The position numbers were made by a program, and so were the translations under genes. A DNA stretch of 6,412 nt from a virus (Duplodnaviria; Heunggongvirae; Uroviricota; Caudoviricetes): IMG/VR virus record IMGVR_UViG_2690316210_000006; one strand, 5' to 3'. The notes beneath the pieces were generated by a model. The model was not told the DNA's origin and did not search any database. It saw nothing but the letters and a program-made list of their open reading frames with translations. Below are positions 32 through 6,412 of the stretch, one piece after another (the first letter of the stretch is position 1; every line of letters starts with the position of its first letter).

Positions 32-358
32 TCACTGGCGCTGACACTTCATCACCTCCGGACGTAAATCACCATCCTTTGGTGCATTCAGAAACGCGTT
101 CAGTGTCCCCGGTGCATCAGTCGGTGCCACATCAATATCCCCGACACGGGTTGGCTGCCAGCCGTTACAGTGAAGCGCAACCTCGTAATACCCCGGCTCA
201 GCCTCAATCACATAAGCACCGTTATTGTCCGTCACGCAAGTGGCAACAACGTGTGCCACAACGGTCGGACTGGTTCTTCTGGCCCGCAGTTCAATCGCAC
301 AATTTACGACAGGTTTACCCGCCCCATCTTTCAGTACACCTGAAATCTTTACTGCCAT
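32..358 (-). CDS. Side-tail-fibre (Stf) N-terminal-domain-like protein, 108 aa, ending at a TGA 31 nt from the window edge; possibly a truncated stf remnant
   Basis: Minus-strand ORF; from the internal Met the product begins MAVKISGVLKDGAGKPV..., matching the recalled N-terminus of lambda Stf, with PGTLN.FL and RPEV motifs also conserved. ATG at 356-358 is preceded by GGGGTGAAT (SD-like, ~5 nt spacing). The longer ORF-track start at 400 would overlap a terminator-like hairpin. Position after lom matches lambda order J-lom-stf. Confidence 0.55.
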   Translation of the reverse strand: MAVKISGVLKDGAGKPVVNCAIELRARRTSPTVVAHVVATCVTDNNGAYVIEAEPGYYEVALHCNGWQPTRVGDIDVAPTDAPGTLNAFLNAPKDGDLRPEVMKCQRQ

Positions 359-369
359 ATTCACCCCAC

Positions 370-394
370 AAAAAGCCCGCCTGAACCAGCGGGC
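370..394 (-). terminator. Putative intrinsic terminator downstream of lom (hairpin plus U-tract)
   Basis: On the minus strand: GCCCGC-TGGTTCAG-GCGGGC (6-bp perfect stem, plus-strand 375-394) followed by TTTTT (plus-strand A-run 370-374). Lies between the lom stop (422) and the stf-like start (358). Confidence 0.4.
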
Positions 395-421
395 AGTCAT
401 AACACTGTGTTACCTGGCTAA

Positions 422-1042: not shown

Positions 1043-1070
1043 AATAAAAAAGGCACCATTTCTGGTGCCC
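1043..1070 (-). terminator. Putative intrinsic terminator between J and lom (copy 1)
   Basis: Minus strand: GGCACC-AGAAAT-GGTGCC (plus-strand 1052-1069) followed by TTTTTTATT, starting 20 nt after the J stop codon. Confidence 0.6.
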
Positions 1071-1088: not shown

Positions 1089-2522
1089 TCAGCTAATCGT
1101 GATGCCTGCAGTGGCTTTCTTCATCACCACAACCAGCAAATCGCTGATACTTGCTGTGGGATACCAGCCATTTACCAGCCATGCCGATACAGAAAACTCC
1201 AGCGTCATGTGACCGTGACCGGCAGGCATATCAATAACACCCGTATATATCAGCGTATTATCCAGGGTCGTTCGGTTATAAATTTCAGCACCGTTTTTCT
1301 TCACTATCAGGCGGCATGACGAATAAATATTGTTATTCTTCCGCTCATGTTTAGCACCGCGAAACGCCACCGCGGGAATAACAATTTGCCGATCAAACGG
1401 CTGATCGTCATAAACCCTGACGGTAATGGTCCCTGATGGCCACCTCTCCGGTGCCCGGGAGTCCCGTGGGAAAGGTTTGCCCACTGTTTTAACGAGATCG
1501 CCTTCAATCTGGTTCGCGGACAATTTTCCCAGAACCCGACAGTTCTTATTAATCGTGACGTTGTTGAGCGTCCCGGAGTTCGCGTTCACGTTACCGCTGA
1601 TATCGGCATTTTTCGCCGTCAGCCGCCCGTCCGGTGTCAGGGAAAATGCCGGAGGATTACCGCCGCTGGTAATGGTCGGAGCCGTCAGGCATTTCAGGAA
1701 CACGTCGTTCATGAATATCTGATCGCCCTGACCAACAAACATCGGCTTTGTGTTGCCATTCGCAGGATTAATCATCGCAATCCTGTCTGCCGCCAGCAGC
1801 ACCTGACTCTGCATTCCTGCTGGCGTATTCTCAATACCGGCACCGATACCCGCAATATAAAGGCGTCCGTCCTTCATCTGTTGCAGCTTCACAGCCCACA
1901 TGCTGTTCAGGTTATTATTTGTATCAACCTGAACTTTCTGTATCTGCTGGATTGCAGCACTCTGATTTTCCAGTTTTTTATTGACGGTTTGCGTGATTTC
2001 ATTGCTGACATTCGTAATGGACGTCCTGATTTCAGTCAGGTCCGGCGCAAGCTGACCGTTATCAATCTGCGTCCACAACTCCTTGCCGAGATGCGTTTTA
2101 TTGATCAACCCTTTATAAAAATTCAGATAACCTTCTGCATCATCGCTCGCCCGACCGATGGCCTCCACAAATGCCGATTTGCCAACGGTGTTCACACTGC
2201 GAACGTAAAAATAATAATCATGGCCCGGCCTGATATTGATACTGGCGGCTATCCAGTACAGCGCCGTGCCAAGATAGCGTGCTGTGGTTTCAACCTGCCT
2301 GATATCCGCAATCCGCTTTTCCGAGAACCAGAACTCAAACTGTACCGTCGGATCATAAACCGCAAGATGCGGCGTGGCGGTTATCTGAAAATAGCCCGGC
2401 GTCAGCTCAATCCGCGACAGCGCTGCCGGTGCGGCAATCCGGAACGATACCGACGCCGGATCGCCCTGCTGCCCCCACGCATTTACTGCCCGGACTGTCA
2501 GCCTGTAGTTCCCCAGCGCCAG
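1089..2522 (-). CDS. J: Host-specificity / tail-tip protein J, C-terminal ~477 codons (allele 1), 5'-truncated at the ambiguous base 2523
   Basis: The minus-strand frame reads [32 protein letters not shown]...[12 protein letters not shown]...[25 protein letters not shown]... to ...[10 protein letters not shown] then TGA (1089-1091), collinear with the recalled lambda J C-terminal region. The ORF-track start at 2195 is an in-frame GTG (Val in J), not a real start. Confidence 0.85.
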
Positions 2523-2523
2523 N

Positions 2524-2919
2524 GGTCAGCACATCGTGCGTTTTCCCCTTGTTGTCAGTTACGCGGAGATAATCCCCGGAGAAAGTCGACACACGGCTGT
2601 AAGCCACACCCGCCATCGAATACGCGCTGAACCAGCGGTTACGCACGGAATCTTCATGCCAGCGGGTATCGCTGTAGTGCGTTTTTTGCTCATCCTCAGC
2701 ATTGGCATAACTGAAGGACGTAATCAGCCCCAGCGCGTCCGTAAACTCATAACGGTATTTCACGTTAATCCCGTTCAGATTATCGCTGCCGGGAGCGTTC
2801 GTACGGGCATGAAGATACCCCGCGCTCAGTGTGGACTGATGTTCAGACGCCCATGCAGGCGCACCGGATACGGACAGACAGATGGCTGCGGACAAAATGA
2901 CTGCACAAACTTTACGCAT
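2524..2919 (-). CDS. lom: Lom-family OMP, second allele, N-terminal fragment only (truncated at ambiguous base 2523), with a 42-bp in-frame deletion relative to copy 1
   Basis: ATG at 2917-2919 with the same SD context as copy 1; product MRKVCAVILSAAICLSVSGAPAWASEHQ...; aligns to copy 1 positions 584-1021 apart from a 14-codon deletion and scattered substitutions. The frame then runs across N2523 into out-of-frame J sequence. Confidence 0.75.
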
Positions 2920-2940
2920 AATTACCTCTCGCTTTTCTGC

Positions 2941-2968
2941 AATAAAAAAGGCGCCATTTCTGGCGCCC
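2941..2968 (-). terminator. Putative intrinsic terminator between J and lom (copy 2)
   Basis: Minus strand: GGCGCC-AGAAAT-GGCGCC (plus-strand 2950-2967) followed by TTTTTTATT. Same position as the copy-1 terminator, with a compensatory stem change. Confidence 0.6.
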
Positions 2969-2986
2969 GTATATGGGTTATAAAAT

Positions 2987-4249
2987 TCAGCTGATACTGA
3001 TGCCTGCGGTGGCTTTCTTCATCACCACAACCAGCAAATCGCTGATACTTGCTGTGGGATACCAGTTATTCACCAGCCATGCTGACACCGAAAACTCCAG
3101 CGTCATGTGGCCGCGACCAGCTGGCATATCAATAACACCACTGTAAATCAGCGTATTATCCAGCGCGGTACGGTTATAAATTTCAGCACCGTTTTTCCGT
3201 ACTATCAGGCGGCATGACGAATAAATATCGTTATTCTCCCGCTCATGTTTAGCGCCGCTGAATGCCACCGCCGGAATAACAATCTGCCGGTCAAACGGCT
3301 GATCGTCATAAACCCTGACGGTGATGGTCCCTGATGGCCACCGTTCCGGTGCACGGGAGTCCCGGGGGAAAGCTTTGCCCACTGTTTTAACGAGATCGCC
3401 TTCAATCTGGTTGGCGGACAATTTTCCCAGAACCCGACAGTTCTCGTTAATCGTGACGTTGTTGAGCGTCCCGGAGTTCGCATTCACGTTACCGCTGATA
3501 TCGGCATTTTTCGCCGTCAGCCGCCCGTCCGGTGTCAGGGAAAATGCCGGAGGATTACCGCCGCTGGTAATGGTCGGAGCCGTCAGGCATTTCAGGAACA
3601 CGTCGTTCATGAATATCTGATCGCCCTGACCAACAAACATCGGCTTTGTGTTGCCATTCGCAGGATTAATCATCGCAATCCGGTCAGCAGCCAGAAGCAC
3701 CTGACTCTGCATACCTGCTGGCGTATTCTCAATACCGGCTCCGATACCCGCAATATAAAGGCGTCCGTCCTTCATCTGCTGCAGTTTCACGGCCCACATG
3801 CTGTTCAGGTTATTATTTGTATCAACCTGAACTTTCTGTATCTGCTGGATTGCCGCACTCTGGTCTTCCAGTTTTTTATTGACGGTCTGCGTGATTTCAT
3901 TGCTGACATTCGTAATGGACGTCCTGATTTCAGCCAGGTCCGGCGCAAGCTGACCGTTATCAATCTGCGTCCACAACTCCTGGGCCAGATGTGTTTTCCC
4001 GATTTCTCCTTTGAAAAAATCCAGGTAACCTTCCGCATCATCGCTCGCCCGACCGACAGCCTCCACGAATGCCGATTTGCCAACGGTGTTCACACTGCGG
4101 ATATAAAAGTAATAATCATGGCCCGGTTTGATATTGATACTGGCGGCTATCCAGTACAGCGCCGTACCAAGATAGCGGGCTGTGGTTTCAACCTGCCTGA
4201 TATCGGTAATCCGCTTTTCCGAGAACCAGAACTCAAACTGTACCGTCGG
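2987..4249 (-). CDS. J: Host-specificity protein J, C-terminal 420 codons (allele 2), from PTVQFEFW... to stop; joined upstream to another J segment at ambiguous base 4250
   Basis: Continuous minus-strand frame [28 protein letters not shown]...[32 protein letters not shown]...[10 protein letters not shown] with TGA at 2987-2989. About 95% amino-acid identity to allele 1, with many synonymous nucleotide differences. Confidence 0.85.
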
Positions 4250-4250
4250 N

Positions 4251-4969
4251 GGTGTCAGGGAAAATGCCGGAGGATTACCGCCGCTGGTAATGGTCGGAGC
4301 CGTCAGGCATTTCAGGAACACGTCGTTCATGAATATCTGATCGCCCTGACCAACAAACATCGGCTTTGTGTTGCCATTCGCAGGATTAATCATCGCAATC
4401 CTGTCTGCCGCCAGCAGCACCTGACTCTGCATTCCTGCTGGCGTATTCTCAATACCGGCACCGATACCCGCAATATAAAGGCGTCCGTCCTTCATCTGTT
4501 GCAGCTTCACAGCCCACATGCTGTTCAGGTTATTATTTGTATCAACCTGAACTTTCTGTATCTGCTGGATTGCAGCACTCTGATTTTCCAGTTTTTTATT
4601 GACGGTTTGCGTGATTTCATTGCTGACATTCGTAATGGACGTCCTGATTTCAGTCAGGTCCGGCGCAAGCTGACCGTTATCAATCTGCGTCCACAACTCC
4701 TTGCCGAGATGCGTTTTATTGATCAACCCTTTATAAAAATTCAGATAACCTTCTGCATCATCGCTCGCCCGACCGATGGCCTCCACAAATGCCGATTTGC
4801 CAACGGTGTTCACACTGCGAACGTAAAAGTAATAATCATGGCCCGGTTTGATATTGATACTGGCGGCTATCCAGTACAGCGCCGTGCCAAGATAGCGTGC
4901 TGTGGTTTCAACCTGCCTGATATCCGCAATCCGCTTTTCCGAGAACCAGAACTCAAACTGTACCGTCGG
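4251..4969 (-). CDS. J: Host-specificity protein J internal segment (third copy, 719 bp, PTVQFEFW... to ...[10 protein letters not shown]), allele-1-like, bounded by N4250 and the N-run
   Basis: Same reading frame as the J copy downstream; the sequence matches 1633-2351 almost exactly and 3531-4249 at ~95%. Forms the N-terminal part of the 608-aa ORF-track entry 2987..4813. Confidence 0.8.
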
Positions 4970-5152
4970 NNNNNNNNNNNNNNNNNNNNNNNNNNNNNNN
5001 NNNNNNNNNNNNNNNNNNNNNNNNNNNNNNNNNNNNNNNNNNNNNNNNNNNNNNNNNNNNNNNNNNNNNNNNNNNNNNNNNNNNNNNNNNNNNNNNNNNN
5101 NNNNNNNNNNNNNNNNNNNNNNNNNNNNNNNNNNNNNNNNNNNNNNNNNNNN
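4970..5152. other. Run of 183 ambiguous bases (assembly gap or masked sequence) inside the J reading frame
   Basis: Directly visible as n characters. Its length is close to the ~185 nt of J coding sequence expected between the flanks (STARTTET upstream, PTVQFEFW downstream). Confidence 1.
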
Positions 5153-6412
5153 GTGGTTTCCGTCGTCCGGGCCGTGCTGACCAGTCGCTCACTGCCGTCG
5201 TCCGCTGTTACGGTCAGACGGAGCAGGAAGCTCACGCCCTTCACCACCTTCGGCGTGTCCCAGCGCGCCAGCACCTGATATTCCCCGCTGTCTGCAGTGA
5301 CTTCGGCGGTCAGGTGCTGCACTGCTGGCGGCGTGACACCATTCACCGTGCCGCTCTGGTCACCGTCAAAGTGCGCCCCGTTATCCACGATGGCTTCTTT
5401 CTCCGGTACATGCTGCACGGCGGTGATGGCATACGTGCCGTCATCGTTCTCACGGATACTCACGCAGCGGAACAGGCGCTGGCGCAGCGTCGGCAGCTTC
5501 AGCCCCCACACGCTGTATTCTGCAACGCCGTCAGGAACACGGCTCACTTTCACCTTCACGCCGTCGGTGACGGACTGGACCTCCACGCTGACCGGATTAC
5601 CCTGACCGTCAACCAGGCTTATCAGCGTGGTACCGGAGGATGGCAGCGTGATTTCACGGTCGAGCGTCAGCGTCCGGGTCTGGCTGTTCACCGCCAGCAC
5701 GCGCCCGCCGGTGCTGATACCCGCATAGTCATCATCGCAGATTTCAATGACATCCCCCGGTACATGGCGAAGCCCTTCCGCACCCACGCTGAAGTCCACG
5801 GTCTGCGTTTCCAGCAGTTCCGTTTTAATCAGCCACAGCCCGGCGCGGTGCGCCTGCCCCCGGCTGGTACAGCCAAAGGCATCCATCTTCGTGACGTTAC
5901 GACCGTAACGGNACAAGCTCTGTCGCCGTCTCCCAGCCGTTATCCGGGTCAATCCAGTTCACCTCAACGGCATTATGACGGTCCTTCAGGGCACTGAAGC
6001 TGTAGCGGAACGGCGCGCCATCATCCGGCATCACCACATTACTGCGGTTATAGGCCCACACCTTATCCGACTGTCGGTCCTGCACGAACGTCAGCGTCTG
6101 CCCGTTCCATACCGGCATACAGCGCATCGCCGAGCAGAAATCACTGAGAACATCCCACGCCTTGCGCTGTGTGGTCAGGTAGGCATTACAGGTGATGCGC
6201 GGCTCCGTGCCACCAAAGCCATCCGGCACCGACTGGTCGCAATTCTGGCCGATGACATACAGCGCCCATTTGTCCACATCCGCCGCACCGAGACGCTTCC
6301 CCATGCCGTAGCGCGGATGGGTCAGCATATCCCACAGACACCAGGCCATGTTGTTGCTGTATGCCGGTTTTAGCGTTCCGTCCCAGATACCGCTGTATTG
6401 CCGCGTCTGCGG
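5153..6412 (-). CDS. J: Host-specificity protein J, central region (5'-partial at window edge), with a frame break at ambiguous base 5912
   Basis: Minus-strand translation gives ...MAWCLWDMLTHPRYGMGKRLGAADVDKWALYVIGQNCDQSVPDGFGGTEPRITCNAYL...NAVEVNWIDPDNGWETATEL, then after N5912 in another frame RYGRNVTKMDAFGCTSRGQAHRAGLWLIKTELLETQTVDFSVGAEGLRHVPGDVIEICDDDYAG...LVSTARTTET, collinear with recalled lambda J. Confidence 0.9.

Follow-up and report, generated by a model that had tools for sequence, protein, structure and literature searches.

The silent differences between copies of the tail gene J in this 6,412-nt stretch of DNA (the window) very probably separate ordinary lambda-type J genes of different prophages, which were set side by side when draft contigs were joined across gaps. 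The observation of almost exclusively silent differences at positions 3660–3790, from which this analysis started, is correct and far beyond chance. The initial annotation was partly right in what it drew from this observation: purifying selection holds, whereas it does not follow that the copies are alleles. Coordinates of all features are listed in Table 1.

Table 1. Features of the window, grouped by gene, and domains of the A/B alignment of J.
Feature	Position	Strand	Description
stf N-terminal-domain ORF	32..400	-	PF08400 phage_tail_N, E 1e-36; MAVKISG... start at 358; stop after 108–122 aa
Terminator-like hairpin + T-run downstream of lom copy A	375..394	-	consensus scan
lom copy A, complete, 199 aa	422..1021	-	Ail/Lom outer-membrane beta-barrel; PF06316 positions 1–199 of 199, E 4e-129
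Hairpin + T-run between J and lom, copy A	1051..1070	-	GGGCACC/GGTGCC
J 3' part, version A (477 codons + stop)	1089..2522	-	second Ig/FNIII domain, helical shaft, beta-prism fibre, receptor-binding domain; contig end 2522 cuts the gene
Single N	2523		contig join, J codon to mid-lom; no biological junction
lom copy B, 5' 396 nt only	2524..2919	-	in-frame deletion of 42 nt compared with copy A and ATCC 11775
Hairpin + T-run between J and lom, copy B	2949..2968	-	GGGCGCC/GGCGCC
J 3' part, version B (420 codons + stop)	2987..4249	-	Pfam Ig_J_second, Phage_Tail_Tip, Ig_GpJ_C; contig end 4249 cuts the gene
Block without A/B difference, 199 bases	3483..3681 (copy A 1585–1783)	-	inside the beta-prism, just upstream of the receptor-binding domain
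Stretch under study	3660..3790 (copy A 1762–1892)	-	Phage_Tail_Tip beta-prism, about lambda J residues 865–908; 8 differences, all silent
Single N	4250		contig join, mid-J to mid-J
J internal fragment, version C (719 bases, piece 3)	4251..4969	-	equals copy A 1633–2351 with 3 differences
183-N run	4970..5152		scaffold gap
J middle part (piece 4)	5153..5911	-	open frame; Pfam end of Phage-tail_3, start of Ig_J
Single N	5912		between pieces 4 and 5
J part further upstream (piece 5)	5913..6412	-	open frame; Pfam Phage-tail_3
Second Ig/FNIII domain (FNIII-2)	alignment codons 1–79		omega 0.125
Linker + helical shaft	alignment codons 80–132		omega 0.29
Phage_Tail_Tip beta-prism	alignment codons 133–261		10 silent, 0 replacement changes
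Short connector	alignment codons 262–290		omega 0.15
Receptor-binding domain	alignment codons 291–420		omega 0.117, highest dS (0.37)

We aligned the two longest copies of the J 3' part, version A and version B, over their shared length (1089–2351 against 2987–4249). The alignment is ungapped and free of indels, frameshifts and internal stops, and 87 of 1263 bases differ (93.1% identity). These differences are distributed over codon positions 1, 2 and 3 as 19/10/58 and change 23 of the 420 amino acids. Applied to the full alignment, the Nei-Gojobori method gave 58.8 synonymous (Sd) and 28.2 nonsynonymous differences (Nd), with a dS of 0.235, a dN of 0.030 and an omega of 0.126. Fifty-nine of the 87 differences are synonymous, compared with about 23% expected at random (binomial p = 1e-18). 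The claim of purifying selection is borne out by both the omega value and the codon-position split. Sequencing noise, which the initial annotation had also excluded, is ruled out by the third-position bias and by independent complete genomes that match the two versions at 97.8% and 99.7%. Differences scattered randomly over codon positions, together with frameshifts, had been named as the pattern that would speak against selection; we found a strong third-position bias and no frameshift.

Within the 3660–3790 stretch the translations of A and B are identical. The four differences that had been reported between 1780–1800 and 3679–3699 lie at copy A positions 1784, 1788, 1791 and 1797, and all are silent; three are third-position changes and one is a first-position change (AGG/CGG, both Arg). 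The further silent changes were all found as well, namely gga/ggt at 1815, ggt/gga at 1842, caa/cag at 1881, aag/aaa at 1887 and gct/gcc at 1893. The last of these corresponds to window position 3791 and thus falls one base past the 3660–3790 range. The chance probability of nine out of nine differences being silent is about 2e-6.

All genes in the window lie on the minus strand, and the window is composed of five pieces (1–2522, 2524–4249, 4251–4969, 5153–5911 and 5913–6412). Piece 1 contains an stf N-terminal-domain ORF, a complete lom and the last 477 J codons, while piece 2 begins in the middle of a second lom, followed by the last 420 codons of a second J. When the five pieces are placed on complete reference loci, their coordinates overlap within one J-lom unit. 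Piece 2 is equivalent to positions 584–2351 of piece 1, and piece 3 to positions 1633–2351 of piece 1. Piece 4 begins 16 nt past the end of piece 1 on the reference J genes, and piece 5 lies 21 nt beyond piece 4, where the window has a single N (5912). The order of the pieces in the window follows the order of their leftmost coordinates on the reference J-lom locus. Pieces 2 and 3 share the same end, GTACCGTCGG, and piece 3 begins within the 199-base block that is identical in A and B. Mid-gene joins, the shared GTACCGTCGG ends and overlapping coordinates are typical of the output of an assembler or scaffolder for repeated gene copies. On the reference, piece 3 ends 187 bases before piece 4 begins, which is near the 183 Ns written between them in the window, yet the 21-base gap is represented by a single N, so gap sizes were inconsistently estimated in the scaffold.

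A reading frame that crosses an N join has no meaning. Across the window the J frame is interrupted by these joins and by the 16-nt and 21-nt gaps seen against the references, and the first ~460 codons are absent; all J pieces, ~3.9 kb of sequence, are nevertheless open, without a stop codon or frameshift. Pieces 4 and 5 are 98.3% and 97.6% identical to the version B reference and 95.3% and 94.0% identical to the version A reference. No uninterrupted sequence, as expected of a tandem duplication, runs between the copies, since the joins at 2523 and 4250 are Ns, the first between mid-J and mid-lom and the second between mid-J and mid-J. With joins that are Ns in the middle of genes, the side-by-side “alleles” therefore show how the assembly was laid out and not how the genome is arranged. 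The copies sit on separate contig pieces, and in complete genomes each type is the single J-lom unit of a separate lambda-like tail module, which argues against the term used in the initial annotation. Most likely, A and B are paralogues that belong to different prophages and not alleles of one locus. A practical lesson for the reading of raw sequence is that the single N characters in the window are contig joins.

We then compared the versions with complete genomes. The nearest relative of version A was found in FDAARGOS_943, with 97.8% DNA identity, and version B matched ATCC 11775 and many ExPEC genomes at 99.7%. FDAARGOS_943 and ATCC 11775 each carry a single J, in the order tape measure-M-L-K-I-J-lom-stf. 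The J-lom-stf part of this order is present on piece 1, and the full M-L-K-I-J-lom-stf order occurs in the related loci L001, L002 and L007–L012 and in lambda; the I, K, L and M genes are absent from the window. Among 5426 complete E. coli genomes, the version A query had a match in 5018 (median 3 places, maximum 17) and the version B query in 4888 (median 2 places, maximum 14). The two J types have different prophage neighbours in complete genomes, ipaH/IS1 for one and yciE/ompW for the other. Among representative genomes, an exact 42-base word of version A occurs at two loci, one of Shigella flexneri SFBU1023 and one of E. coli ECMA0423, which match piece 1 at 96–97%, and IS-rich genomes with the exact Lom protein match it at 98.6%; at these identities they are relatives of the source and not the source itself. 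The J genes of VT1-Sakai and PPompW resemble the window versions with 93.6% protein identity over 420 residues. Overall, the window shares an identical J-lom-stf context with lambdoid prophages of pathogenic E. coli and Shigella and 97.8–99.7% DNA identity with prophages in complete genomes; nothing substantial sets it apart from their J genes, save that it consists of artificially joined fragments.

One relative, L012 (CP019689.1), carries two lambda-like tail modules, at 4454–7933 and 13871–16600, which are 9.4 kb apart with an IS3-family transposase gene between them. Their J genes are 100% identical, with 0 differences in 2730 nt, and the locus is a genuine recent segmental duplication. 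Set against this, the dS of 0.235 between A and B rules out a recent duplication in the window, as the initial annotation had stated. We also calculated the ratio for pairs among A, B, FDAARGOS_943, ATCC 11775 and VT1-Sakai J, and obtained omega values of 0.10–0.22 with dS up to 0.25. Because unrelated reference J pairs give an equal omega, the low ratio is generic for lambda-type J genes.

The initial annotation had further described the copies as functional, which goes beyond the data: the window holds fragments only, any two reference J genes give the same ratio, and the lom next to version B lacks 14 codons. What a low dN/dS reflects is selection that acted in the past within the phage gene pool, and it does not prove that these copies work at present. 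That the copies belong to defective prophages in decay, with a low dN/dS that is purely historical, is a possibility we take seriously without favouring it. The lom deletion, the stf ORF that ends after 108–122 aa, the abundance of IS elements in related loci, the VT1-Sakai J annotated as truncated through mutation and the equal omega between any two reference J genes all point in this direction, but the J pieces, about 3.9 kb in all, contain no stop codon or frameshift. Decay is moreover compatible with the explanation by different prophages; it qualifies the word “functional” and replaces nothing.

We consider it quite unlikely that A, B and C are alleles or strain variants of one prophage locus in a mixed sample, such as a metagenome or a non-clonal culture. 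Short alternative contigs with ends in shared sequence (piece 3 in the 199-base block, pieces 2 and 3 at GTACCGTCGG) are indeed the pattern of variant bubbles, and version C is only 3 bases away from A. However, repeated prophage genes in one clonal genome, with a median of 2–3 and up to 14–17 J/lom places, give the same contig pattern, and A and B are 7% apart and represent sequence types from different prophage contexts. A real tandem array J'-lom-J'-lom-J', arisen by an old duplication and retained by selection, would agree with the order as written in the window and has some precedent in the closely spaced tail modules of L012 (9.4 kb apart, with an IS element between), but it is hardly credible, as every junction is an N in mid-gene without sequence continuity, the truncations of the copies coincide with repeat boundaries, in the gene maps of the eight related loci that we inspected J-lom is never followed directly by a partial J, and the real L012 duplication is identical (0 differences in 2730 nt) where dS here is 0.235.

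We thus favour silent divergence between J genes of different prophages. The window is best read as a scaffold from the draft assembly of an E. coli or Shigella genome, in which N placeholders connect contigs of one locus type, the J-lom-stf end of the tail module of a lambda-like prophage. Pieces 1, 2 and 3 represent overlapping versions A, B and C of the J 3' part, most likely derived from different lambdoid prophages of one genome. Co-residence of the versions in one chromosome is what we infer from the commonness of multi-prophage genomes; several lambdoid prophages per genome have been documented (PMC2669165; PMC3945230). A and B belong to two widespread sequence types, which at a dS of about 0.23 must have split within the phage gene pool a long time ago. 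The J protein is probably constrained by its FNIII domains, its helical shaft, its interlocked trimeric beta-prism, its Ig-like receptor-binding domain and the receptor signal that has to pass upward. Because folding and signalling are constrained in this way, most amino-acid changes would have been purged, so that the surviving differences are mainly silent. This selection presumably acted mainly while the J genes were in active phages. Lambdoid J genes are mosaic, with a conserved fibre and hub and a variable receptor-binding end, and a genome of E. coli or Shigella carries several of them. Nothing in the window departs from this known biology, and the finding carries little biological weight. 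Where copies of this kind show a low dN/dS, the ratio mirrors the history of the phage gene pool and not what these copies do now.

The assignment of the fragments to J is based on domain and structure matches. The product of J is the trimeric tail-tip, central-fibre and host-specificity protein of the phage. Version A matched the Pfam families Ig_J, Ig_J_second, Phage_Tail_Tip and Ig_GpJ_C, and in versions A and B PF24421, PF24489, PF09327 and PF12421 all exceed the curated cut-offs and occur in the lambda order. The J fragments also matched the solved structures of lambda gpJ, with E-values of 1e-184 for 8iyk and 1e-187 for 9wca, and over 477 aa they are 61% identical to lambda J residues 683–1131. 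As far as sequence comparison goes, the fragments are those of a lambda-type tail-tip gpJ, with a predicted role in receptor binding and host range. The domain architecture and signalling mechanism of gpJ have been described (PMC11101478). Compared with lambda gpJ (8iyk, 8xcg, 8xcj/8xck), the order of the Phage-tail_3 hub, Ig_J, Ig_J_second, the Phage_Tail_Tip beta-prism and the Ig_GpJ_C receptor-binding domain is the same, and as in lambda lom and stf follow downstream of J. The helical shaft of the window versions is, in contrast, 28 residues longer than that of lambda, and related full-length J genes encode 1159 aa compared with 1132 aa in lambda. The ~28 extra shaft residues are present in both versions, at 2041–2117 in A and 3939–4015 in B (codons about 79–104), where no lambda alignment was obtained. 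The shaft appears to be an exchangeable module. The receptor-binding domain has also clearly diverged from that of lambda, and the receptor of the window versions may therefore differ from LamB.

Next, we examined how the A/B differences are distributed along the gene. The initial annotation had predicted a low ratio in the centre and a higher one at the C-terminus. The direction of this contrast was found (0.045 compared with 0.12–0.15), but it is not significant, with a Fisher p of 0.31 for the centre against the C-terminal part and of 0.21 against both flanks. Nor is the ratio highest at the C-terminus; the maximum lies instead in the helical-shaft linker (codons 80–132). The densest A/B cluster, 19 differences in a 90-base window, was also located there, at the start of the extra-shaft segment. 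The receptor-binding domain accounts for 10 of the amino-acid differences between A and B. The only domain that stands out is the beta-prism, in which the split of 10 silent to 0 replacement changes differs from that in all the remaining alignment with p = 0.027. In gpJ, the beta-prism forms an interlocked trimer that twists to relay the receptor signal from the receptor-binding domain to the hub (PMC11101478), and the silent-only pattern fits this known relay.

The beta-prism also contains the 199-base block in which A and B are identical. This is the longest identical run in the alignment, followed by one of 62 bases, and a permutation that held the number of differences per codon position fixed gave a probability of 5e-5 for a longest run of at least 199 bases. 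Among the reference J genes, the same block shows 1–10 differences, so this region is conserved anyway. The version A block has 4 differences from its own closest relative, out of 13 in the whole alignment, and 1 from the B-type reference. The identical block points to either exchange between J genes or assembler collapse of the two copies. That it is a real gene-conversion tract between co-resident prophages, and a preferred crossover for the swapping of receptor-binding modules, seems rather doubtful to us; if true, prophages within one cell could trade receptor-binding modules. Version C is A-like but carries B-type bases at 2211, 2229 and 2230 (copy A equivalents), with an R to K change at one codon. 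Either a third prophage copy that contains a small B-type patch or a chimeric contig would account for it.

Recombination among co-resident lambdoid prophages is known to generate mosaic temperate phages (PMC3945230; PMC2669165). The window resembles these cases in its patchy divergence, with 199 bases of identity amid ~7% difference and with an A-like version C that carries three B-type bases. Unlike in those cases, the identical block here could stem from read collapse during draft assembly, and recombination is a possible cause. A literature search on recombination of the host specificity protein J in lambdoid prophages returned no paper.

The lom copies that accompany J were compared in the same way. 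Copy A extends over the full length of the PF06316 family (~199 aa) and its exact protein occurs in 1874 blocks of the assembly collection, whereas copy B falls short of full length owing to the contig end and to 14 missing internal codons. Piece 2 accordingly matches the reference genomes in two parts, with 1768 reference against 1726 query bases. The 42 bases missing from lom B correspond to the 14 codons VMAGPSVRVNEWFS, which are present at 687–728 in copy A and in the ATCC 11775 locus. This stretch sits between two copies of CGCTGAACCA, which indicates either a slippage deletion or an assembly collapse; if it arose by slippage, the deletion probably damages the beta-barrel. Between lom A and lom B we obtained a dS of 0.21 and an omega of 0.20. 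The replacements are gathered in a short N-terminal stretch, QTHTDMPG against HARTNAPG. Downstream of lom, the side tail fibre is likely truncated in this lineage, judging from the short stf ORF; a similar 122-aa stf gene is called in L010, and FDAARGOS_943 has a 470-aa version.

A scan for promoter-like sequences yielded 4 matches in the window, compared with 4.7 expected in shuffled sequence. Terminator-like hairpins followed by T-runs were detected downstream of lom copy A and in both copies of the J-lom spacer. In the J-lom hairpin both arms have changed between the copies, which replaces an A-U pair by a G-C pair and keeps the stem. The 67-base spacer has 3 differences in total, 2 of which form this compensating pair. 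A compensating pair among so few differences suggests that the terminator-like structure itself is under selection.
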